Shown here one piece after another: positions 1-17,733 of a DNA stretch of 64,000 bases. The stretch covers positions 578,227-642,226 of the forward strand of contig ML992501.1 of the NCBI GenBank assembly GCA_010093995.1. Direction: 5' to 3'. Both the position numbers and the translations under genes were made by a program. Within the stretch, counting starts at the first letter, position 1; each line of letters begins with the position of its first letter. The DNA comes from Elsinoe ampelina (lineage: Eukaryota). The notes under the pieces are model-generated. The model searched no databases, was not told the DNA's origin, and was given only the letters and a program-made list of their open reading frames with translations.

Positions 1-681
1 TGGTGTAGACCTTCTGGAGGGGATCAGTCCGCTGATGACGGTCATACTCGAGAGGTCTCGCTTCGTTTGGAGTCGCAAGACACGACCACTCTGCCATTTG
101 CGAGACTGGCCGACCCAGTTGAGAACTCGCTCTTGACTCCCAGCGACGACTTCAAGACGTCAGACGATCATGATCGATCTCTACCATCCCTCATATGGAG
201 TTCTCTGCTTTCTCTTCCAGTCGATGTGCGAACCATATGTGTGTCTCGCATTGTTGTTATGGGAGAATCGGGTCGGTTGCCGGGATTGAAGGCGCGACTG
301 CTACACGATCTTGAGCTGATCATCTCGCGCCGAGCTTGGAATCCGGTCCTCGATCATGGTTCACGAAAAGGGGGAGTAGCCAGAGCACTTGTCAAGCCAG
401 TTGTTGCTGATGAAGAGAATGCAGCGGATGAAGAACACAGCGACGCTTTCAGACAAGCTGTCGGGAATGTTATGAATGACGCGGATGATGAGAGAGATGA
501 GATCACCGAGAGGCTGGAGAGACAAAATGTAAAGTCGAGACCTCCTTGTATTTCCAAGTCTGTTCGCTCAGTGGAGTCATTAGAAGCATGGGCAGGTGCG
601 AGTCTGACGGGTCACCTCAAGGTGGAAGGAAGGACCCAAATCATGAAGGATGACTTTCTCAAGCAAGGCATGAGCTTTTAG
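1..681 (+). CDS. actin-like ATPase fold protein (Arp10-like), 3' part; 5' end outside window
   Basis: Frame open from base 1 to TAG at 679-681. LPSLIWSSLLSLPVDVRTICVSRIVVMGESGRLPGLKARLLHDL and LEAWAGASL resemble C-terminal actin-fold motifs of divergent fungal Arps. Confidence 0.6.
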   Translation, partial: WCRPSGGDQSADDGHTREVSLRLESQDTTTLPFARLADPVENSLLTPSDDFKTSDDHDRSLPSLIWSSLLSLPVDVRTICVSRIVVMGESGRLPGLKARLLHDLELIISRRAWNPVLDHGSRKGGVARALVKPVVADEENAADEEHSDAFRQAVGNVMNDADDERDEITERLERQNVKSRPPCISKSVRSVESLEAWAGASLTGHLKVEGRTQIMKDDFLKQGMSF

Positions 682-905
682 ATACCCAGTTATTCAATGA
701 TTAATCACCGCGTCTGTCCATTTAACTGTGCTCTATGATCAGGCCGATTTCAACCAATGTCGGCACGTGACATGCGAAGCAGGCGCCAAGACCGCCAATG
801 GGAAATGTTCATGCTTGCGTTCTATTTCGCCCGTCTTTCTTATAGTCAACCTTCACCTCGCAGGCAACTGCGAAGGCCGGAATCGGGCTTCCGAATTGCG
901 CCACC

Positions 906-1423
906 ATGAAGGTATTATCCTACATTCCTACCAACAGTGCGCTTCGCTGACTTGCAAGGTCCTTGATGCTGGCACCAAGGTCTTGTCAGATCACGAAGTT
1001 CTGAAATTCATTCAAGAGAAGCGACAGCAACACAAAGACGAAGACGAAAAGGCAAAATCAGCAGGCCAAGCTGTCCTTCCTCGACCAGGAAATTTCATAC
1101 TCGCACTAGAACGACACGAGTATCATCTCAATCACAAGCGACGACCATACCTCGAGAACCCGAACTACAAATCCGATCAGTCGCATATCATACAGCTTAT
1201 GGAGGCTCTGGAGCCACGAGTACAGCTCACGAAGACCGAATTGCTCATGCTGGTGAATCATCGGCCACATAATCGGGTCATGATGTTGCCCATGATTGAG
1301 GATGCCGAGAGTCGTTACAGTGAGGAGGACCAGAATTGGATCGTGGAAAAGGTGGTGGAGATTCTGGGTGAACCTCGACCGATCACGCCTGATCCCAATC
1401 AGATGGACGAGGAAGAAGGATGA
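906..1423 (+). CDS. RPC17: RNA polymerase III subunit C17/RPC9 (Rpb4-like HRDC fold)
   Basis: ATGAAG at 906, intron 912-958 (GTATTA..GCTGAC..CAAG), giving MKVLDAGTKVLSDHEVL...LTKTELLMLVNHRP...MIEDAESRYSEEDQ. Confidence 0.85.
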
Positions 1424-1874
1424 GGACAATTGGAGGATCATCAGAAAGAAGACCACATGAGCAATCCCAACAAGGACGATGACGCCTCAATGGCACGATT
1501 TACCCCGAGGTCGATCAAGGACCTCAGCTCTGGCTGTCACGTCCAAATTTTGGCGCTGGAATGAGGCCGGCCCAAGATGGGCACAGAATCGCTCTGAATG
1601 TATCAGAGCATGATCCTCGCCATGGGCAGTAGGGAGCGAGGGTGGATCTGGATGGAGATTTGATGACTTATGCAACAGATGATACCCATAGAACTACAGA
1701 TCTACCGGCTAGCAGTGGAATTTCGCTATCTGGCATATTCGAACATCCTCTCACGTTTCCTTGGTGTCGTCGGCTTTCTTGACATGTGAAGTGCGTGTCG
1801 GTGCATCCGCATCAGGAAATGGCCGCATCCGCACTCGGAATGGACTACTAAGTTAGACCCGGGCCTGTGCGCCT

Positions 1875-2245
1875 AGCTCTATATAAATAATCTATGCCTC
1901 TTAACTTTACTTTCTCTTTCTCTTTTTGTGCTTCCTTAGACACCATGCTAGCCTTTCTCGTTTTACCTCTTCTATTATTATATATATAGAGATATATTAA
2001 AGATACTACCTTTAAGTAGTTTAAACTCTATCTTCTAGTTTCTAAATAGATTTTTTTTTGAATAAAATAAAAGTTATTTATATCTTACATTCTTACTAGT
2101 TATATCTAATACTATATAACTACTTAGATTCTTACCTAGATAAGCTGTATCTAAGTTAGATTAATAACTAACCTATATAATTATTTAAGAGTAAATGCGT
2201 TCAAAAAAGAGAGTAGTAATGCAAGATAGAAACGAGTTAGATTCA
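1875..2245. repeat. short RIP-mutated AT-rich relic
   Basis: Abrupt AT-rich island with dense TpA (tatatataga, ctag, ttaa) and depleted CpA/TpG inside otherwise ~50% GC DNA. Confidence 0.7.
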
Positions 2246-2574
2246 GTTGGGATCTAGTTCGGATTGGTCACGTGATCTCGGCATCGCGGCCCAGGCTTCC
2301 GACGCTCTGCCCTCGATATCTGCGTACTCTTGTACACTAGTTTCTTCTCTTCTTCTTTTCGAATTCTCGATTACTTGACAAATGGACGCAATTGACCCCT
2401 TATCTTGCCAGTCGTGGTCAGGCACGAGAATACTACCGTATCCAAAATCGGCACAGTAAGTGCAAGTCCAAGTTCAAAATGCACAGAAATCGTCATACAA
2501 TCATGGATTACTATCATTTAACTGTACAAGTTGCACCCCCGTTTCGCAAAGGTGTTGTACCCGCCTGCTTATGT

Positions 2575-4173
2575 TCACAAGCCAGCTCTTGTGGGGCTAC
2601 CTGGTGCGCTACGAAAGCCCGTCGATTTCGATGCTGGCGTGCCTAATGCACTCTGCGGAAGCGTATCCTGGATTTCCACAATCCGGTGGAAGGTAGTCTT
2701 TGTTACAAGATCCTCGATGTGGTGGTCCTCAACTTTCCAGTAGAAATCGTTAGCGGTGACTAAGACCTTGAGAGTTCCGACAGCAGACTCAACCATGCCG
2801 TGCAACAACCTCAGCATCAGTCGTTGCTCAGGACGGTCGCAGGCGTCCAATCGGTCGATAATCAGCCAAAAAGGACAAGCTTCGTGCAAATGTGTTGCGA
2901 CCAGAACGGCAGCCTTTTGCAAAGACTTTGCGCAATTGGTATCTTTTGCAGGTGACTTTGCATCTTTGAGATGGTCTTGATAGATATCGATCAAAGTCCG
3001 CAACTTCGGCAGATCAAGAGACGGCAGCGCGACAGCCATCTGTATCAGGATCTCTGCGACGCAAGTATGCATGTCGCGAGGGCCAACAGAGTCGAATATG
3101 TAATACGCAAGTGCTTCAGTCTTCGCACGGCGGGACTGGATGAGGTTCACAGCAAATGGCGACACCCAGGCATGTTCATGTCGCGGCATTCTTGTGTGGT
3201 TCTTCCCGACGAGGACCAGCATATAGGACGACTGGTTCGAGAACATGCCCGCCAATTCCGGTCGACACCGCATTTCTTCAATGACACTTGGTGACATCCA
3301 CGTAAATTGTGGATTAGTATCATGGACTTCTTGCAGAGTTCGCTCATAATATTGCAGGCTCTTCTGTTGTTCTTGATCAGAGCGTGGCCAAGTTCGAAGC
3401 GATCTTTGTAAGTCGGCGATCTGATGGCGGTTTTGTTCGGAACGAAACTTCTGGATTTCCAGTCTCGATCTCTTGGCTTCTTGCTGCAGCTGGGCGATGT
3501 TCCGTAGAAGCTCCGAATTTTGCTGACTTATACGGTCGATAACTACTGTCAACAGACCTTCTGCTTCGACTCGAACCGCTGATATCTTGTCCTGGACGTC
3601 TCGGACCACTTGCTGAAAGCCCTCCGGACGACCGAAAGCTTTGAGCCACCTCTTGGTTCCCGATTGCAGACAATGCTGCGCAGCGATGATGGAGAGATCG
3701 ACTATACCACCCCATGCTACGGTCATTTTGGCGCGAAGCCGGGCCTCGAGAAGTGTTTCCTGATTGTAGATCTGCTTCAGCATGTCCAAAGTCGGCAAAC
3801 GGTCCATCACGCCTGCCATGGCCTGTACGATGCTTCGATCGATTGTATCTTTGGCCCAAGCGATTGCGAAAAGGCCACTAACAACTCCGATTGCGAGGCC
3901 ACCACACGGCGCTGTGCTTGCGGCCAAATTGACCAGCGGCTGGAGAGTCTGGATGAAAGTGCTTGCGGCAGCGGCTTTGCTCTGTGCAGAGCGAGCCCAA
4001 TGTCTGAGACCGTGTGCATGTAAATCGTCTGCAACATTCTGGCCCTGTCTTGCGATGTCTGCCCAGTACTGAGCTGCGTCTGAAAGGTCTTGTTGGTGAA
4101 AGCATTTAGATTGTTCTGCCGTGATTTGCCCGTGTTTAGCCAGCCAAACGTTGAAATCCTGTTGGCGCGCCAC
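2575..4173 (-). CDS. NACHT/STAND-like protein: N-terminal helical domain, coiled coil, degenerate P-loop domain, no C-terminal repeats
   Basis: Intronless 532-aa ORF. N-terminal APCGGLAIGVVSGLFAIA...MDRLPTLDMLKQIY...RWLKAF helical domain as in fungal NACHT proteins. LVLVG (Walker A position, no GKS/T), ALAYYIF, FWLIIDRLDAC (Walker B-like), LKVLVT. Confidence 0.65.
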   Translation of the reverse strand: MARQQDFNVWLAKHGQITAEQSKCFHQQDLSDAAQYWADIARQGQNVADDLHAHGLRHWARSAQSKAAAASTFIQTLQPLVNLAASTAPCGGLAIGVVSGLFAIAWAKDTIDRSIVQAMAGVMDRLPTLDMLKQIYNQETLLEARLRAKMTVAWGGIVDLSIIAAQHCLQSGTKRWLKAFGRPEGFQQVVRDVQDKISAVRVEAEGLLTVVIDRISQQNSELLRNIAQLQQEAKRSRLEIQKFRSEQNRHQIADLQRSLRTWPRSDQEQQKSLQYYERTLQEVHDTNPQFTWMSPSVIEEMRCRPELAGMFSNQSSYMLVLVGKNHTRMPRHEHAWVSPFAVNLIQSRRAKTEALAYYIFDSVGPRDMHTCVAEILIQMAVALPSLDLPKLRTLIDIYQDHLKDAKSPAKDTNCAKSLQKAAVLVATHLHEACPFWLIIDRLDACDRPEQRLMLRLLHGMVESAVGTLKVLVTANDFYWKVEDHHIEDLVTKTTFHRIVEIQDTLPQSALGTPASKSTGFRSAPGSPTRAGL

Positions 4174-4979
4174 GACATCCTTTATGTATTGTCTACAATG
4201 TCAGCTGCAGCTCGATCTGAGACATGTACAGATTGGGACATGCACACTCTTCGGAACTCGTCAATTCGGAATCTGGAGGTATTGTTCCATTCTGCGATGG
4301 TCCGCGATCTGTAGATGAATGCGAAGGCATGGTGGTACGGCCGGGGACGTCAGGAGCCGAACACGCTTCAGACCACGCACGCTATTTGATCTGGCGGCGC
4401 TGACCAGATTGCCCGGATCATGAATTTCCGCCTGGCGAATTATGCAAATGCATCTCACTATTTTCAGCCCTGGAGCCAAGGCATTTTGGCTCAGCTGACA
4501 CCCTTTTGGCTAGACGTCTGAGACTTCTCAGATGTCACTCCAAGCTGGGCGATGCAGCTGAGATCTAGGGCGTAAGCGCTGACCTCCTCATTCGCGGATA
4601 TTCGAGAGCAATGCATCTGGCTGTCGACTGTTGGTCACGCCAGCGATTGCGGAGGCAAGTAACCCAATCACGGTGCAGAAGTCTTCTGCAACCATTGTTT
4701 GGAGGCTTAGAGCTGCGTCAAACTATTGAGAGCTGGATCCATCCTGTTCGTCGAGCAATCTCCCGCGCTGCCCGATGGCTTGCAAAGTAGTATTGTCTCT
4801 GGTGGCGAAGCGGCTTGCTAAGGGACGGCAATCTCTCTCAATCGCTTTTCATCCCGCGGTGCTCAGCTCTACAGGTGGCTTTCTTATTTGGTCGTTGAGC
4901 CACCAATCCCTCCCGTTCTTCCTGTTTTTTGCCCGTCATCGAAGCCGAGGACTACCACCAGCGTTTACATATCATCAAC

Positions 4980-7733
4980 ATGGCTGCGGTCGAGACTGCG
5001 AAGGTACTCGAGGCCCCCAAGGTTGAGACCAACGACGTTGCAGTGAATGGCAATGGCGACCGCGAGGGGCTGAATAAGGTGAGAAGAGCTATGCTCATTC
5101 TTCTCGGAAAGGATCAATGGCTGACGCGATGTAGACCCAGCTAACACTCAAAGAGGAGGTTGTGAGACTTTCAGAGCAGCTGCTTGAAATGGACAAAAGC
5201 ATCAAAGATTTGCACAAGAAGCTGAATGAGGATGCGATTCCTATAGCAGAGACTAACGGCACGACTGTCGGTAACACTTTACAGGACTGCAAACGAATGC
5301 TGAATTGTTCAGGCAAAGGAAAATGAAAACAAGCCACCCGTCGACGGTGAAGAGAATAGCAAGTCGCCGAAGAAGCACGTCCAAGTTGTGATCAACAGGG
5401 CAGACGACACTGGTGATCGGAAGGATTACTCTCCGTCCTCTGCTCAGGACGCCGACGAAAAGACCAAAAAGAAGCAGGAATATGGAGTATTACTGCGACG
5501 TAACTTGGATCTCCGCAATCCTGGTACAGGCGAAATCGAGATCTTCGATCGCGATGCCCGAGATCTGCTTCGAAAACTCCTTGCTCACTATCCTTCTCAC
5601 CAATTCATCGGCGAGCAAGTGGAACTGTCTTCTCCATACGAAGCCCTGATCATGAATTGGGATCTGCTCTGGGAAGATTGCAATCAACCTACTGGGGACA
5701 TGAAACTCAGCAACGCCAGAGCCATTGTCAAAGACTTACTAGAGGAACTGAAGGTCTTATCAGGAGATGCCAAATTGGACGCTTATCTCAAGATTAGAGA
5801 TGACCTCAAAAGACAGAACTTGATCACGTTCGAGTCTCTCTGGACAATCTTCCCGCCTGGAGTGTTGGTGAAAGGCAACATTTTCCTCCGCGGTGGGAAG
5901 CAAGATCAAATTTTCATCGTGGAGGACAACATACAGCCGTGGCCGCAGGAGCCAGAGACTATTCGTACCCGGGCTCCACTCAAATGGTCTCTTGAATGCT
6001 GGCTCTATGATTTCACGGGGAAGGACTTCACGAAGCGTCGTGTGCGTCTCTTTATCGAGTCTTTTGAGGGGCAGAAGCCAATCACATCTCTCCCATTTTA
6101 TCCGCTGGCATATATGGAGAGGACGGCGCGAGATGACCTTGAGAAGCGGCTGAAGACGAGAGGCGAATCCTTCAGGAAGTTCTGTGTCGGCAGTATGGGC
6201 GATGGATCAGAAAGGCAGAATGGCAAAATGATGTTCAATTACGAAGGTGCGGCAATACTGGAGAAGCAAGGGTTCAGAGGGGTCCAGAACGCGGACGACT
6301 CTGACGATGTGAGTCAAGCGACAACGTGTAGTCTATTAGTACTAACAGCACCAGGAATTGGACAGCCGCTTCTCGTTGAGTCGGATGAAACGGTATCTGG
6401 AAAAGAAGTCGCGCGGAACGAAAATGCAACCATTCACACGGCTGACCGAGACCAATGTTATGGTGGATTTCGAGTCATACTTCCGCTATGGTCCGGAGTA
6501 TGCTTCCATTGGGGACACCGCTGTTTTCGATGATGTGTATGCTTGCCCTTGCAAAGAGTGCACAACAAATGAAGCGCAGAAAAGGTTGTTCAAACCACAC
6601 TACGATGGGATGAGCGGCCACGAGAGCGAGACGTGGGAGGACTTGCAGTATATGCTGTGTCCTCCGAGAGTCCTCGGCTACGTCCTCAAGGAGAAACAAT
6701 GGGCTCAACTCGCAGTCGAAAATCTTCGAGAGATACCAGCACAGAACCATGAGGAAGTGATGCGCAACCTGTACCTGGCGGGGAAGAACAGTGGTCAAGA
6801 TCAGAAGAGACTTCTTTTCGGCTTGGTGAAGCACCATGGCCAGCATGAAAATGATCCGGAAGACATCGTCGCCGAAAAAGGGAAAGGCCTGATCTTCCTG
6901 CTCTATGGAGCTCCTGGTGTGGGAAAGACATCTACTGGTTCGTCGATGAAGCTCAAACATATTTTGTGACCCGCTGACTCATGTAGCTCAAATGATCGCG
7001 AAAGCAGCCCGCAAGCCACTTTTCTCCATAGGTGTTGCTGACGTTGGTACCAAAGCGCGTCAAGTCGAGTCGAATCTAGAGACAATCTTCGAGCTTGCAA
7101 CCACGTGGCGGGCAATTCTACTCATGTCAGTTGCGCCTGAGTATAGGAGAGTTTGATTACTAACAGTCACGTAGAGACGAGGCAGACGTCTTCTTGCAAA
7201 GTAGAAGTCATGGTGGGGCTGGTCCATCTGCGGAAGGCAGCGCTTTAGTGTCCGGTCAGTCAGTCGATCTCACTCGGAGAACCATCTAATAGGGTTGTGC
7301 AGTATTCTTGCGAGTCTTGGAGTACTATCGCGGTATCATGTTCTTGACCACAAATCAGATTGCGCAGTTTGACGTTGCGGTCCAGTCCAGAGTGCACATC
7401 GCGCTGAAATACGACAAGCTGGATGAAGATCAGACTGAGAAGATTTTCAAGAGCTTCGTCGACAAGTACAAAGAGCAAGGCGGTATTGATAGCCGCGAAC
7501 ACGAAGCCATCATCGAGTACGGCAAAGAAGATTTCGTCTTCAAGGGCTTCGATGGTAGGCAGATTCGCAACATCGTCACTTCAGCTATGGGCTATGCAAG
7601 GGGACGAGGTCAAAGCCAAATGACCAAGAAGGACATCATTGCTGTCGTCAAGAATGTTGACTCATTCAGACAGGACCTCTCAGGAGCAATGATGTTGTGG
7701 CGGAAGCAGCAAGAAGGCACGAGGATGTCCTGA
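4980..7733 (+). CDS. fungal AAA+ ATPase (long N-terminal domain plus single AAA module)
   Basis: Seven exons; introns ~5079-5134, 5267-5312, 6309-6354, 6938-6986, 7126-7174, ~7255-7302. Walker A LLYGAPGVGKT, Walker B IDEADVFL, FLRVLEYYRGIMFLTTN, Arg finger SRVH, lid GRQIRN. N-terminal ITFESLWTIFPPG and ITSLPFYPL motifs are typical of this fungal family. Confidence 0.9.
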
Positions 7734-7996
7734 TCATCAACGATCGGAATCGAGTCCCTTCGGGCGCGAATTTGTCTAAGATTCTTCTCTCTTTTTGTCG
7801 TTCTATCTGTCCCTCATTTCGACCGTCGCAACCTATTTCTCGATTCGATCATTCAAATGCTCGTGGTTGAGAGAGGCAATGCTGTGCAATCATGTCTTTC
7901 AAGCTTTTCGCTACAATGACGACTCGAGGAGAGCAACGCCTATGACGCAACGTGATCATGTTGTCTGCAGGCAAAAGTCACAGCAAAGTTATGTTA

Positions 7997-9603: not shown

Positions 9604-10944
9604 ATGAGCATCTGGGGAGGCTCGGTACGTTCGATCTGCTTCCCCTCCGTGCCGCATCTTCTGCTTGAAAAGATACACCCATCACGTTTCTATCTGGCGT
9701 CTCTGCAACGAACCAGAACTAACTTGCCCAGTCGGCGAAGCCGTACACGGCCGTGTCTGTTCAGATTGATCGCATGACTAGCGAGCAGTACGAAGAAGAT
9801 GACCTCTCCGGCCTGATTGACCTCATTGAGGTCATCCGTATCCAAGGGTCTGGGCCTACCGAAGCTGCCAGAGCAATCAGGAAGAAGCTGTAAGACTCAC
9901 TGGTTTGGAGCAGCATCGAGCGATCTGACATTACATAGCAAGTACGGCAGCTCGCATAGACAATTGCGTGCGCTCGTTGTTCTTGACGGACTAATCCAAA
10001 ATGCCGGCTCTCGATTCCAGAAGACCTTTGCGGATGGACCTCTGCTCGAGCGACTTCGGGTCATGGCCCGAGACGACACTGTAGATCCAGCCGTACGACA
10101 AAAGTGCAACCTGCTCTTCCGCCAGTGGGCCGTAGCATACAAAGACACCGCTGGGCTATCGTCCGTGGCTGCATTGCACAAGGAACTACCACAGCCCAAA
10201 CGTCGTGCACAGCAGAAGCCTAAATCTATACGAGAAACAGATCTAAACTCCGAGGACGAACGGCCAGCTCCAAAAACTCATACGAGGAATGCCTCTGGTC
10301 CATCAGCCAGTTCCTCTTCACCAAAACCGAAAGCAGCTGCTGACTTGAGTGGCATTATGGAGCCGTCAAGCAAGTCGTCGAAAAAGAACAAAGCTGGTGT
10401 CAAGTTCAACGTGGAACGCGAAAAGCCTCAAATCATGCAGACGATAGCCCAGTCGACCATCGCATCGACGAATCTGCTGAACGGCCTGCAGTTGATCAAT
10501 CGCGAGCATGAGCGAGTCTCCGAGAACCAAGAAGTCGCCACCAAATTCGAGATTTGCAAGCAGCTCCGTCGAAAAGTGCTCGGCTATATTCAGCTTGTCG
10601 AGAACAACGAGCTGGTCGGCAGTCTGCTCACTGCGAATGACGAGCTTGTCAAGGCCCTCACTGCATACGATGTTATGGATAGGAGCATGGACGACGACAG
10701 CGATAGTGATCAATGGGAAGATCCTGCAGGCTTTGATGCTCCATCAGGTGCTGCGAGTCAATTGAAGGGACTCAAACTTGAAGAGAAGCCGCCTGCGAAG
10801 CCTGCACGACCTGTACAACAGGAGGAGAGTGAGGATGAGGAAAGTGAGCCAGAAGAGATTGATGAGGACAATCCGTTTGGAGATCAAAACGCGGTCAAGA
10901 CGCCTGGGATTGAGAGGCCTGGTATGACTTGGAAGACTGTGTGA
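9604..10944 (+). CDS. LSB5: VHS/GAT-domain endocytic adaptor Lsb5
   Basis: Introns 9625-9731 and 9890-9938. KPYTAVSVQIDRMTSEQYEEDDLSGLIDLIEVIRIQGSGPTEAARAIRKKLKYG (VHS), GAT-like helices, C-terminal NPF motif (DNPFGD). Confidence 0.9.
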
Positions 10945-12456: not shown

Positions 12457-15400
12457 CTACGGCACCTTGGCTGGACTAGGACTCGGTCTCGCGCTGTCCA
12501 TGTTCCCTTTCCACCGCGCCGACTCGGCGCCGATCTGCTCGTTTAGCTCTTCCAATTGACGGACTTGTTCTTGGATACTCGCGAGCTGGGGAGAAATTAG
12601 TATCTCATGTCAAGCAGGGGGATAGGTACGACATACTGTGCCCTCGACTGTCCTGCCCTGCTCATCAATCTCGTATCCATTCTCATCCCCCAACCCTAAG
12701 TCGTCACCTTTGAACCCCTCCGTGAACGGATCCTCCATGCCTCTTGTCCCAATACTGCCCCGACTGCCTCTACTCCCCCCTTTGCCCCCGGACCACGGCC
12801 TCGATCCCCCGCCTATACTCAAACCAGATGCATTCCCATCCACAATCCCCAACACATTCCTGGCCCCTCCCCCGGCGAGCCGCCACCTCTCCCCTTCCGC
12901 CCGACTCGCACTCAACTCCATCTCCAACTCCGCCACCCTCCCGCTCAACTCCCTCACCATCCGCGTCTTGACATCCAACTGCTCCTCCACGTCCCCGATC
13001 TCCGCCGCCACGAGCCGTACCTTCTCCGCATCGACGCCCTGCCCCGCCAGTCCCGCGAGGGAAGCAGCCACGCTTCTCTCCTCCGCCGCGCGTTCACGCT
13101 GATGCGCGTCCGCGAGAGCCGTCTGGAGCGAGGAGATGGTGGATTCGTACTCGGCCACTAGGTCGGCAGTGGTGGATTCTTCGTTGAGAGAGCGGGCTTC
13201 GCGTTCGGTGGTGAGGGCGTCTTGGGTTTCTGAGAGGAGGGCCTCGGCGCGTTTGAGGCGGGATTGGAGGGAGGTGAGTTCGGTGGCGTGGTGTTCTTTG
13301 GTGGAGGCGAGTTCGTGTTCGAGCGAGGTGGAGATGCGTCGGGAGATGTCGTCTTCGAGGACTTGGCGGGCTTCTTCGAGGGAGAGCTTGTGTTCAAGGC
13401 GCAGGTCTTCGATGGCGGAGGCGTGTTCGGACTTGAGCATTTCGGTGATTGAGGACGAGGAGGTTTGGGCTTCTTGCAGGGCGGCTCGGAGGGAGGAGAG
13501 TTCGGACTCGTGTGCCTCCACGGTGCTCGTTTGCGCGTTGGTAAGTTCGGTAGCGTGGGCGGCGAGGATGAGTTCGATCTGTTCGCGCAAGGAGGCGACT
13601 TGTGAGCGGAGGGCGTCGTTGTCGGCTTGGACTGACTTGAGCTCGGCCGCAGAGGTGGCTGATCGGCTGGCTTCCAGGGAGGCATTCTCTGCGCGAAGAG
13701 AGGAGAGCTCTGCCTGGAGTGCTTCTAGCTCGGATTTGTGGGTAGCCTGGAGTCCGGCTGCGCGAGTCTCGAGCTCGGTATTGTGCTTCTCGATCAATGC
13801 GGTACTCTCTTCCTCCAACTCAGAAATCCGACTCTCCGCATTCGTAAGCTTGGTAGTTACTGCATCGACGTCGGTAGCTGAGTTGCGGAGTGCCTCGAGT
13901 TCCCTATCCTTTGCCTCCAGCGCCTGGCTATGGGTATTGCCGAGCTCTGAGAGCTCAGTCTCAAGGTGCTGAGTATGTTGCTTGGTCAAGCTCTCAACCT
14001 TACTCTCGAATTCGCCAGCGGCAGTCTCAAGAGCGGCCTTTGCCTGTTCTGCTGCCGCGAGCTTCTCAGCTAGGCCTTTGCTATCGGCGGAAGAAGCTTT
14101 CAAGGATTCGATCTCGGTGTCTCTGGTCTTCAGTACATGAGCATGGCCGGACTGAATCTCAGCAATCTTCGTCTCGAGTTGCTGAGCGTGCTCTGTTGCA
14201 AAAGCATCAAATTTCGTTTGCAATTCCATAAAGCTCTGTTCCAGTGTCTCCTTTTCTTTTCCCAGAATAGACAACTTCTCAGTAGCATCGGCATGGTCTG
14301 CAGTTACGGATTGGAGGGAAGCAAGCTCCTTGTCCTTTGCAGCGATTGCTTCATTGTGGGAAGATTTGAGCTCCTCGATACTAGAATGGTTGCTCTCCCG
14401 CTCCTTCTCGACAGCATCGAGCTTCTGCTTCAGCTCGCCGAGCATCTGCTCCAAGTCTGCTTTGTCCTTCTCGACCGCGATCAGCTTGGAAGCAGCAGCG
14501 GTACTATCCTCGAAAGACGACTGGAGAGACGCCATCTCGTTATGCTTGTCCCACAGAGCCTTTTCGTGCTTTGTCTTTAGATTTTCGACTTCAGTCTGGC
14601 TATCAGCGTATTTCTGCTCCAGCTCGGTAGCTTGCTGCTTAAGGTCGGCGTTGATGCTCTCAAGCTTCTCCTGTCGTTGTTCCAGTTCGGCGAGCCTGCT
14701 TGCTCGAGCAGTGGCTCCCTCCAACGATGAGCGAAGTGTCGCAAGCTCTGCATCTTTCTGTCGCAACAGTGTCTCGCTCTCGGCTTTCGCAGCAGTGGCA
14801 GCGGACTCAAGCTCGTTAATGCGATCGCCCAAAGTGGTCTTCTCGAAGCCGCTGACTGCACTTTGCTCTTTCAGCAGATTGAGCTCCTTTTCGAGTTCAC
14901 CGTGGGCATTCTGCAAACGCTCAGTCTCCTCGTTACTTGCTGTAGCTGCTTCGAGCTGTGATTTCAACGATGCAATCTCGGACTGCAGCGAGTCCCGATT
15001 ACTGGCAGACTCGTCGAGCGACCTCGACCGTTCTTGGATCGCTTCTCGATGCTTGGTCTCCAATTCTGCAGACTCCTTCTCCAGCCTAGCAATGGTCTTC
15101 TGGAGCTCTTTCGCCTTGCCTTCATGGTCTGAGCGCAGATGGTCCATCTGCTTCTCCAGATCTTGATTTTGACGTTTGAGGTCCTGGCCGGTCTCCTCTG
15201 AGGACGCAACAAGATCTTTGTTCTCCTTTCGAAGCTGTTGACTGAGATCCTCGTATTGCTTGAGCTCTTTTTGAAGCTTTTCTGTCATGGAAGTCATCTC
15301 TTTGAGGTCGGCTTCCTGCTTTGATGCCTGGCTGGCGTTTGTTGCATGCAGGGCGTCGATCTCAGCTTGGAGATCCTGGACGACTTTTTTCCCATCTGCC

Positions 15401-17163
15401 CCTTCTTGCTGAAGCTTCTTGATGGTTTCCTCGAGGTCTCGGAGGTGCTTCGCTGAAGCGTCCTTGTCCTGAGCAACAGAAGCTCTGTCGGTCTCGATGG
15501 ACTGTCGCAAAGCGTCCAGTTCCTCCTGCAGCTTGGAATTGTCTAAACCGGCTTGCTCATGCTTGGTTGAAAGATCCGAAAGCCTCGACGACGCTTCTGA
15601 TCTTGCCTTGTCGAGCTCATCTTGTGCTTTCTTGAGTTCCTGGCCATGTTTTCCAGCTGTCTCTGTAGCAAGCCTGCTTGCGTTCTCGAGAGCCTTTTTA
15701 ACCTCGTCAAGCTCCCTTTGCAGACCTTGTGCAGCAGTGACCTTCCCATCAGAAGTTTGAAGCTTGTTCTTCAGCTCTTGGACCATCTTCTCCGCTTTGT
15801 CTGCTCTGCTCTTCACATCCGCACTCTCACCAACCTGCTTCTTGACCACTTCCAACTCTTTCCTAAGGCTCTCGGTGACCTTGACAGCAGCTTCCTTCTC
15901 TTCCCTCTCCCTCTTGGATTCCTCGTCCAGGGTCTTTTGAGCACGGTCGATCTCCTCTCGCAGATCCTGGATTGTCTTGGCCAGCTCCTTCTTATCGCGG
16001 CTCTCCTTGCTCAAGTCGTCTTTCAAGGTCTTCTCATTCTCGCTCTTCTCTTGCAGGGCTGCTTCGACATCGGCGATCTTCCCTTCGACTCCGGCCAGCT
16101 TATTGCTCTTGCTCTTCAGACCCTCAATTTCGGATTGGAGGTCTTTGATCTGCTTCTCGTAGCGTTTACGCATCTGGTCCATGAATTCATTCCCAGGAGT
16201 AGCTGCTGGCCTATCATCTTTCCTCTTTGCGCCTTCGATCTTCAGCTTCTGCACCTCCTTCTCGCTTCTCCCAAGATCCGCCCTGAGCGACTCTATTTGC
16301 TCCTCCAATTCTTCACGTCGCCGCGTCTCCTTGAAGAAGTCATTCATGATGCGATATTCCCGCATGTTCTGATCTTCGTCGTCATCGTGGCCAGATGTGT
16401 GTGGTCTCGGCCGGCCGATGACAACACTACGAGCCCGTCCATGGCCCGGCTTGCGCGGTACTTCCACTTCAGCATCCGATGCAATTTGACTCGGAGCGCG
16501 AGCTCGTAAGGGCAGCTCAGGGACTGTGGGCAGAGTGGCGGGCGGAGAGCGGGCGGAGCACGAAGGAGATCGTGGAGGGATGCGTTTGGGTGAGGGTGAG
16601 CTTGCCTTTGTAGGCGAGGGGGGCAACTTGGCTGGAGAGCGAGGCGCATTGGCTATGGTCTGCTTCGTCGGCCTGGACAGAGGGGCCGGCACCTTCTTGA
16701 CGACGGAAGGTGAGCTCGCGGCAGGACTGGTCTTGCTACTGGAAGTAGGCCCCGGTGTCTTGGTTGTGGTGACCGGTCGGCGAGGGGCAGCAGAGACAGT
16801 CGAGGTGGTTGAGATGGTAGGCTTGGTCGGTCTAGCACCGCTGACACTCGACGTCAAGGTGGATGTTCGCCTTGTTGCGGCGGTCCCAGCGGGGACATCA
16901 CTCGACTTTGAGTCGACATCTGAATCTGTACGTGAGGACTTTGGCCGTGCAGTAGTCGAGGTCAGATGGGGTCGAGTCGGGGGCTTGCTGATAGTCGCCC
17001 CCGTGGTCCTTGAAGCTGAAGAGGAAGGCCTGGGGGCAGCATTGGTCGAGTGTGCGAGGGATGCCTTGGTAGCCGTGGAAGTTCTGCTAGAGGCAGGGCT
17101 GGCCGTCTTCTTCCGCAGAGCCTCTTCGCTAGCTAGCTTAGCACGCTCTCTCGCCGTGGACAT
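12457..17163 (-). CDS. large coiled-coil protein with Ser/Thr/Pro-rich basic N-terminus
   Basis: 1517-aa ORF plus terminal exon (intron 12636-12586 GTATGT..CTAAT..CCAG; last exon LASIQEQVRQLEELNEQI...KVP*). About 1000 aa of E/K/L heptads. Confidence 0.85.
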
Positions 17164-17733
17164 GTTGGTGTGCCGAGCATGTGATGATGATGTCGAGATG
17201 CAGAGTCAAGTGTCAGGTAGTCAATGCCGGAGGCCGAGTCGGCGACTGTACGAGCATCCCAAATAGAAAATAATAGCTGGCAACACGGACGCGGGTCCAT
17301 ATCCCTGATTTTCAGGCACGCGCTTCGTCACTCGTCATGGTACCAGGCGAATCAGGAGCGGCTTGAGGGGGAATTGGCACGTCGAGGCCGTCCCCACTTA
17401 ATCGCGAGCTAGGGCATTTGGTCGTGGACCTTGCATCGAGCAATGATTGAGGCGCGTCATCGAGATCTTCTACGTCGGATCGATCAAGAGCTTCGAGTTT
17501 CACCCATCGTCTTACTTTTGCTCAAACCAAACACTCAAACGGAACGCCTTCGGGGATTTTGCACCCTCGGGGAATGCTACTGTAGAGCTCAGCTCTCGGG
17601 GACATTGACATGTACCACCGCTGGGAAAGAGTCTTCAAATACCAGCAGAAACCCTGGTAAGTACGGTAAGAAACAGTAAGCATCCCCTTTCAAGCAGATC
17701 ACGTCTCCAAAGTCCAATCTTTCCGATACCATC

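Follow-up and report, generated by a model that had tools for sequence, protein, structure and literature searches.

In plants, the P-loop of the sensor is dispensable in the head-to-head NOD-like receptor (NLR) pairs RGA4/RGA5 and RRS1/RPS4. Among fungi, other NLR/partner gene clusters are reportedly comparable to nwd2/het-S. For nwd2/het-S itself, the relevant part of the source (PMC4344463) describes the NLR as a complete sensor, adjoined by the gene of its presumed functional partner, a pore-forming effector engaged via an amyloid motif. Fungal NLRs with Goodbye-like/NACHT_N heads combine NACHT or NPHP3_N with WD40, ANK or TPR repeats in proteins of more than 1000 aa, according to the parts of Dyrka et al. 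2014 (PMC4986451) and Wojciechowski et al. 2022 (PMC9815663) dealing with them. The present analysis concerns a divergent gene pair of the fungus Elsinoe ampelina, contained in a 64-kb window, i.e. the whole stretch of DNA that was analysed (64,000 nt; assembly GCA_010093995.1, contig ML992501.1, positions 578,227 to 642,226 of the forward strand). Gene A (protein P0001) is predicted to code for a short protein with an NLR-type N-terminal head and a NACHT-derived domain lacking the Walker A motif, and gene B (protein P0002) for an AAA+ ATPase. Since the genes also lie next to each other in fungi only distantly related to E. ampelina, they are probably functional partners in a two-gene unit not described before, and the module as such is well supported. 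A literature search yielded nothing on DUF7025, DUF7708, AAA_lid_13, the Pfam accessions or six locus tags, and no description of either family or of a pair of NACHT-like and AAA+ proteins was found, in agreement with the original prediction, made from the DNA letters alone, which knew of no characterised system with this pairing.

Recurrence and transcription of the gene pair

Adjacency of the two genes was tested indirectly, using metagenome contigs and the source names of 20 of the 163 gene A relatives and of 10 AAA relatives (24 matches were listed for the AAA protein). Both proteins were linked in five of five assemblies in which both could be placed, as well as in the window and on the metagenome contig L001, and the genes are direct neighbours at six of these seven loci. 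Four of the assemblies belong to three Fonsecaea species (F. monophora, F. nubica and two of F. pedrosoi), where the homologues are consecutive on the same contig (AYO21_03852/03853, AYO20_09640/09639, Z517_06276/06275 and KAH0840518/KAH0840519); in Pseudocercospora musae, both homologues are located on one contig of 43,543 nt. Fonsecaea, Pseudocercospora, Lentinula and Daldinia were the genera holding both families among the names looked up. Between E. ampelina and the same other species, identity amounts to 25–27% for gene A and 40–45% for gene B, gene A thus evolving faster.

Contig L001 carries a gene A homologue with 28% identity to P0001, arranged head to head with a gene B-like gene, the start codons being 942 bp apart. 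The divergent upstream gene runs off the contig end and matches P0002 residues 79–158 collinearly (BLASTP, E 1e-6); against the Botrytis orthologue, its N-terminus gave a BLASTP E-value of 0.007. This N-terminal match was obtained by reading of the open reading frames (ORFs) and pairwise BLASTP, and tblastn of whole AAA proteins against L001 and a second metagenome locus, L002, returned nothing at E ≤ 1e-2, L002 being uninformative with only ~590 nt upstream. The next gene downstream of the gene A homologue on L001 had no homologue in the 64-kb window, three flanking ORFs of L001 had no Pfam match, and shared k-mers between the intergenic regions of the window and L001 were not above those of shuffled sequences. 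At positions 1392–1500 of L001, a short first exon and an intron (splice sites assigned by eye) seem to be placed much as in gene A of E. ampelina.

Homologues of both families were also observed in the basidiomycete Lentinula (P0037, P0011), the two proteins being from different Lentinula species. The Lentinula AAA protein is 45% identical to that of E. ampelina and thereby as close as the one of the dothideomycete P. musae, which hints at a transfer of the pair between phyla.

Both genes are transcribed. In contigs of the public run X3, the one intron of gene A and the six introns of gene B are skipped exactly, and the contigs are therefore RNA-derived; none of the runs is on record as RNA, and the RNA nature of X3 and X4 was deduced from such spliced contigs. 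Run X4, from a different study, contained spliced pieces of gene B and one piece of gene A. Genes A and B are co-expressed, spliced transcripts of both being present in run X3; run depths were unable to rank the expression of the two. The gene A contig of X3 spans 2653–4738 and the gene B contigs span 4723–7900, so that the spacer between the start codons consists almost wholly of 5′ untranslated region (UTR). The 5′ UTRs have minimum lengths of 408 and 257 nt and abut or overlap by ~16 nt at 4723–4738; hence, no untranscribed promoter is left between the genes. The original prediction of a co-regulated unit is supported, by the recurring adjacency and the splicing of both transcripts in one run, as far as behaviour as a unit is concerned, and in that respect only.

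Three differences from the window sequence recurred among the contigs of three further runs, which belong to two other studies: 2935 A>C in all three runs (X4, X5 and X7), 4393 G>T, a spacer position, in X5 and X7, and 6747 C>A in X7 and X4. By hand translation, the changes at 2935 and 6747 are non-synonymous, replacing asparagine by lysine in both proteins (gene A, N447K; gene B, N540K).

The divergent arrangement of two genes at 2575–7733, gene A on the minus and gene B on the plus strand, was found as predicted, and the translations of the two-exon and the seven-exon model are identical to the deposited proteins of 566 aa and 819 aa, respectively. Two details of the prediction had to be corrected. 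Gene A had been given as a 532-aa protein and the shared region as ~800 bp (4174–4979), since the upstream exon had been overlooked: the open minus-strand frame of 4200–2575 contains no in-frame ATG before 3819, and the start ATG at 4330, a 55-nt intron and exon 2 together give 566 aa. The spacer between both coding sequences accordingly measures 649 bp.

Domains of the two proteins and features of the locus

Exhaustive HMMER searches returned 163 cluster representatives related to gene A at E ≤ 1e-3 (68 at E ≤ 1e-10, 26 at E ≤ 1e-30), with 34% identity for the best non-self match. A word-index homologue search with P0001 or with alignment A1 (47 sequences) retrieved the query itself alone, the relatives being detectable by exhaustive search. 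Nearly all relatives are 480–570 aa long and are aligned from ~residue 20 to ~residue 530. As these proteins are short and aligned end to end, shortness is a trait of the whole family, and gene A is not a truncated long NLR. Among the 150 of 163 relatives listed, none exceeds 649 aa; therefore, no full-length NLR is a close relative of gene A. In A1, W370 is invariant, and S372-P373, D474, R475 and C479 are nearly so. The reading of gene A as a one-off truncated NLR was rejected in view of the 163 relatives with the same short architecture and conserved motifs.

Gene A is predicted to be a repeat-less protein of NACHT lineage with an NLR-type N-terminal head. Pfam matches above cut-off were obtained for DUF7708 and NPHP3_N in gene A and for DUF7025 and AAA in gene B, the NPHP3_N match (30.9 bits, cut-off 24.8) covering residues 377–507 and profile positions 41–162 of 164. 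Within the gene A family, DUF7708 was found in all 47 scanned members, NPHP3_N in 37 and NACHT_N in 3 of them; in the DUF7708 Atlas clusters nearest to the head of gene A, 16–22% of the members carry Goodbye and 10–12% NACHT_N. The helical head and the coiled coil noted beforehand correspond to the DUF7708 head and a coiled-coil-like helix of 76 residues (Pfam and AlphaFold2); coiled-coil Pfam matches were weak and sub-threshold. The predicted lack of a repeat sensor was confirmed in that no WD40, ANK, TPR or LRR repeats were found by Pfam at E ≤ 1. A Gly-rich hydrophobic helix at residues 121–141 is conserved (hydropathy 1.73, a borderline value) and represents the most hydrophobic segment in 4 of 7 members checked; that it could be a membrane-active element is speculation.

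The AlphaFold2 model of gene A (from alignment A1) reached a predicted local distance difference test score (pLDDT) of 86.5. In this model, the nucleotide-binding domain (NBD) is formed around the strands 351–358, 389–393, 469–474, 502–509 and 529–535, followed by a short helix (541–544) and a disordered tail to residue 566, so that the protein ends ~30 residues past the NBD, and no winged-helix or helical arm was modelled after it. Structural comparison of the NBD with VIA-align (150–190 residues) gave Cdc6/ORC (Z 11.4), Avs3 (10.9), MalT (10.3), a STAND-TPR protein (6mfv; 10.0), Dark (9.7), NRC2 (9.2), Apaf-1 (9.1) and CED-4 (8.9). Hence, the model is consistent with a P-loop NTPase fold of the AAA+/STAND (signal transduction ATPases with numerous domains) type, with matches at Z 9–11.4, as had been anticipated for the minus-strand protein. 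Rows within 1 Z were regarded as tied, which applies to the STAND and ORC-type rows; the fold class is therefore supported, but the assignment to the NACHT lineage rests on the Pfam match. Foldseek with both models of gene A (whole protein and head only) returned nothing at E ≤ 1e-3, and a sequence search of A1 against the PDB returned coiled-coil noise alone.

Regarding its nucleotide site, gene A has LVLVGKNHTRMP...HAWVSP in the Walker A region, where the family consensus from A1 reads hhLxGxN...HCWLSP without GK[ST], and the NPHP3_N match begins only at profile position 41. The Walker A pattern Gx4GK[ST] was present in none of the 149 relatives checked. A Walker B-like strand (hhhhD plus an acidic residue) was found as WLIIDRLDACD, with hhhhDRxDxC in the family and D477 being common; R475 occupies the place of the usual small residue. 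These motifs suggest that the NACHT-like domain of gene A is a family-wide pseudo-NTPase, which would accordingly be expected to have no self-operated nucleotide switch. Because Walker A, arm and sensor are missing, gene A fails as a functional STAND NTPase; it is clearly NACHT-derived all the same. The original description as two P-loop-fold genes thus holds for gene A with respect to the fold and fails with respect to Walker A, whose loss had been overlooked. As a consequence, the AAA+ protein is the sole working ATPase of the pair, which changes the mechanistic picture. The family of gene A is a new conserved pseudo-NTPase family, even if its link to gene B should be merely syntenic.

Gene B, by its motifs, is an intact classic-clade AAA+ ATPase and a regular member of the fungal DUF7025-AAA-AAA_lid_13 family, its Atlas neighbours having the same architecture, which occurs in many fungal Atlas clusters. 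Consistent with the predicted integrity of Walker A/B, sensor and arginine finger, alignment A4 (23 sequences) revealed invariant G594/P596-T601, sensor 1 T692-N694 (TTN), the S705-R706 arginine finger and R762/R765 (GRQIRN), with D651-D654 of Walker B at least 90% conserved. AAA_lid_13 was at threshold (24.1 bits with the whole protein, 27.5 bits with the exon ORF, cut-off 27). The solved sequence relatives are p97/Cdc48, NSF, Afg2, Msp1 and Vps4 (PDB, E 5e-10 to 8e-5), and the closest homologues found, 40–55% identical, are from Helotiales, Chaetothyriales, Xylariales, lichen fungi, Pseudocercospora and the basidiomycete Lentinula. On the N-terminal side, a coiled-coil-like stretch (residues 1–124) precedes a conserved region (~residues 125–545, A4) in which DUF7025 is located. 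Invariant cysteines were also observed in the N-terminal part (C473-x-C475-x2-C478 at 6544–6561, and C368; C511 is nearly invariant in A4); C368, C473, C475, C478 and C511 could form a zinc site.

The pair is situated between conserved genes and directly beside a patch with signatures of repeat-induced point mutation (RIP), as originally stated (Table 1). The conserved neighbours are Rpb4, an actin-family fragment and a VHS/GAT gene, and additional housekeeping genes are spread along the 64-kb window; the domain scan of the flanks comprised 52 of the 137 window ORFs of ≥110 aa. The patch has a GC content of 0.33–0.36, TpA/ApT of 1.27–1.41 and (CpA+TpG)/(ApC+GpT) of 0.69–0.73, judged by customary RIP-index thresholds. 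Signs of a mobile element (transposase, repeat, element boundary) were looked for without success, and the window contains no paralogue of gene A or B. At 12613–17205 on the minus strand, a 1531-aa open frame without Pfam match at E ≤ 1e-5 was noticed.

Table 1. Coordinates of the gene pair, its predicted domains and flanking features within the 64-kb window.
Feature	Position	Strand	Description
Actin-family fragment	1–678		Flank gene
Rpb4	701–1420		Flank gene
RIP-like AT-rich patch	1751–2500		Directly 3′ of gene A, between gene A and Rpb4; from GC and dinucleotide indices
Gene A	2575–4330	−	566 aa; DUF7708, long helix, putative NACHT-derived pseudo-NTPase (P0001)
Gene A exon 2	2575–4192	−	Stop included
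Gene A pseudo-NBD	2671–3225	−	Residues 351–535; predicted five-stranded alpha/beta domain of AAA+/STAND type
Gene A Walker B-like strand	2839–2871	−	Residues 469–479; FWLIIDRLDAC
Gene A Walker A position	3151–3225	−	Residues 351–375; reads YMLVLVGKNHTRMPRHEHAWVSPFA
Gene A long helix	3400–3627	−	Residues 217–292 (76 residues); coiled-coil-like; pLDDT mostly >90
Gene A DUF7708 match	3559–3903	−	Residues 125–239; Pfam 34.1 bits (cut-off 25), E 2.8e-8
Gene A helical head			~Residues 25–215; AlphaFold2 helices
Gene A intron	4193–4247	−	55 nt; gctgac branch site; skipped in spliced RNA contig
Gene A exon 1	4248–4330	−	Start ATG at 4330
Spacer between both start codons	4331–4979		649 bp; nearly all transcribed as two 5′ UTRs
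Gene B	4980–7733	+	819 aa; DUF7025-AAA-lid ATPase, predicted (P0002)
Gene B exons (7)	4980–5078, 5135–5266, 5313–6308, 6355–6937, 6987–7125, 7175–7254, 7303–7733	+	From sequence and RNA contigs
Gene B DUF7025	5799–6116	+	Residues 240–345; Pfam 77.4 bits (cut-off 27), E 1.1e-21
Gene B AAA module	6898–7400	+	Residues 591–709; three introns inside; Pfam AAA 63 bits
Gene B Walker A	6907–6930	+	GAPGVGKT
Gene B Walker B	7115–7187	+	ILLIDEAD; spans intron 7126–7174
Gene B lid domain	7419–7649	+	Residues 716–792; R762 and R765 invariant
VHS/GAT	9817–10941		Flank gene

Possible function of the pair

The reading favoured here, tentatively and with not quite an even chance of being right, is that of a conserved, co-expressed two-gene module in which the AAA+ protein likely supplies in trans an ATP-driven step for gene A as an effector or scaffold. 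Gene A has lost Walker A throughout its family, with the winged-helix arm and the repeat sensor either lost or never present, and would thus be unable to switch by nucleotide exchange. The AAA+ protein may instead exert ATP-dependent control over gene A in trans, activating it through assembly or restraining it through disassembly, and would assemble, disassemble or unlock gene A. In turn, gene A would act via its Goodbye-like head in a stress or cell-death pathway resembling those of NLRs, as the effector or the scaffold. Contact between the two proteins, the direction of control and the immune or cell-death output are what we infer from the locus.

Several results weigh against this reading. 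The locus tags of the two P. musae homologues are 7 apart and hence not consecutive. The four Fonsecaea assemblies are close relatives, representing about one independent lineage, and their adjacency was taken from tags and accessions, so that the head-to-head orientation was seen at the window and L001 alone. Since the pairing was derived from 20 of 163 gene A relatives and the 24 listed AAA matches, a small part of each family, it gives no family-wide pairing frequency. Fold searches with the head-only model of gene A (pLDDT 87, predicted template modelling score 0.82) led to generic four-helix bundles only (Z ≤ 8.5); none of the rows listed was an MLKL, HeLo or plant coiled-coil domain. For Goodbye-like domains, a four-helix-bundle core similar to MLKL/HeLo is reported in the part of PMC9815663 concerned with them, and in the corresponding parts of PMC9815663 and PMC4986451 their function is called unknown or open. 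In gene B, the pore-loop-1 region (6987–7125, ~residues 618–632) reads VADVGTKARQVES and has, by eye, no aromatic residue, which would be unusual for a threading unfoldase and is more reminiscent of p97 D1 than of a threading ring. A complex prediction with residues 125–545 of the AAA protein and 20–545 of gene A gave no verdict (scores 0.00 and 0.00); it was run with alignments unused and no controls and speaks neither for nor against binding.

A real module might also serve another role, in which the AAA+ protein would, like Msp1 or p97, work in proteostasis or extract proteins from membranes, and gene A would be dedicated to it as an adaptor, a substrate receptor or a membrane anchor. The solved structures closest to gene B, the broad occurrence of its DUF7025-AAA architecture, the borderline-hydrophobic conserved helix of gene A and the position of the locus amid housekeeping genes are all in line with this. 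Both recognisable domains of gene A are, on the other hand, of NLR lineage, gene A is fast-evolving, and its distribution looks patchy, no close orthologue having emerged from the homologue searches; these properties fit poorly to a core housekeeping adaptor. Such a role is considered unlikely. Lower still is the probability assigned to adjacency that reflects nothing but a shared bidirectional promoter or inherited synteny, with no functional link between the proteins. Compact fungal genomes often contain divergent gene pairs, and no promoter motif shared by the window and L001 was found. Yet the pair was kept across Dothideomycetes, Chaetothyriales and an unrelated metagenome contig despite an identity of gene A of 25–28%, and the sole further flank that could be compared, that of L001, differs from the window.

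It is improbable that the pair is a selfish or mobile two-gene element, a toxin with its antidote or a killer with its protector, which would consist of a harmful Goodbye-like protein and a neutralising AAA+ protein and be spread by transfer between lineages. Such an element would account for the patchy-looking distribution, the low identity of the best non-self gene A match, the presence of both families in Lentinula with an AAA protein equally close as that of P. musae, and the RIP-like patch abutting gene A. Neither mobile-element features nor a paralogue of either gene in the window were found, however, the toxicity of gene A is hypothetical, and the two Lentinula proteins stem from different species. 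Practically no weight is given to gene A as the decaying remnant of a full-length NLR, i.e. a pseudogene or truncated allele, which its lack of Walker A, winged helix and repeats and its place beside the RIP-like patch could suggest. Its ORF is intact, spliced and expressed, the 163 relatives share the short architecture and conserved motifs, and the listed ones are all short as well. The truncated-pseudogene reading was accordingly rejected, as contradicted by an intact expressed ORF and a short family.

The favoured reading of an ATP-driven step supplied in trans can be carried further to a 'split NLR', an extension that is possible yet rather doubtful: a widespread NACHT-derived family would have kept its effector-type head, lost its own switch and sensor, and be run by a co-inherited AAA+ ATPase, with the large DUF7025 N-terminal region of gene B as the sensing or docking part. 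If true, this would be a previously undescribed two-gene build of an NLR-like cell-fate switch. Of the many NLR-like proteins of fungi, very few have been investigated; the compact pair offers a tractable system for the role of the Goodbye-like head and for the control of an NLR-type fold without an ATP site of its own, and provides a first functional context for DUF7708, DUF7025 and AAA_lid_13.

Comparison with described systems

In keeping its fold as a scaffold without ATP binding, gene A resembles the AAA+-like domain of Sir3 and degenerate ORC subunits (Sir3 Z 10.2, ORC/Cdc6 up to 11.4). No sequence relationship to these proteins was shown, and their biology is that of chromatin. The bacterial systems IetA/IetS and TRIP13 (Cap6)/HORMA of CBASS (cyclic oligonucleotide-based antiphage signalling) follow a similar logic, an ATPase controlling an immune-type partner, and gene B scored on the PADLOC models of IetA (E 1.6e-13) and TRIP13 (E 1.3e-10). 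These matches comprise the generic AAA module only, however, and the protease and HORMA partners are unrelated to gene A, in which neither Pfam nor PADLOC detected a protease or HORMA match; the pair is thus not a member of the IetAS or TRIP13-HORMA systems, which are bacterial.

The plant NLR pairs are alike in their divergent orientation and in that one member is without a working P-loop while the other has an active NTPase. Here, by contrast, the active partner is a classic-clade AAA+ protein and not a second NLR, and there is no integrated decoy or LRR. With nwd2/het-S, the locus shares an NLR-lineage gene adjoining its presumed functional partner, as described in the part of PMC4344463 on this system; unlike there, gene A carries the effector-type head itself and is predicted to have no catalytic activity, with an ATPase as its partner. 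By this comparison, neither nwd2/het-S nor the plant NLR pairs appear to use a classic AAA+ partner. The fungal NLRs with Goodbye-like/NACHT_N heads, as characterised in the pertinent parts of PMC4986451 and PMC9815663, share with gene A a head of the DUF7708/Goodbye/NACHT_N group and the NACHT-lineage fold (NPHP3_N). In contrast to these long repeat proteins, gene A has ~550 aa, dispenses with Walker A, arm and repeats, and is linked to a separate AAA+ gene in the genomes checked.

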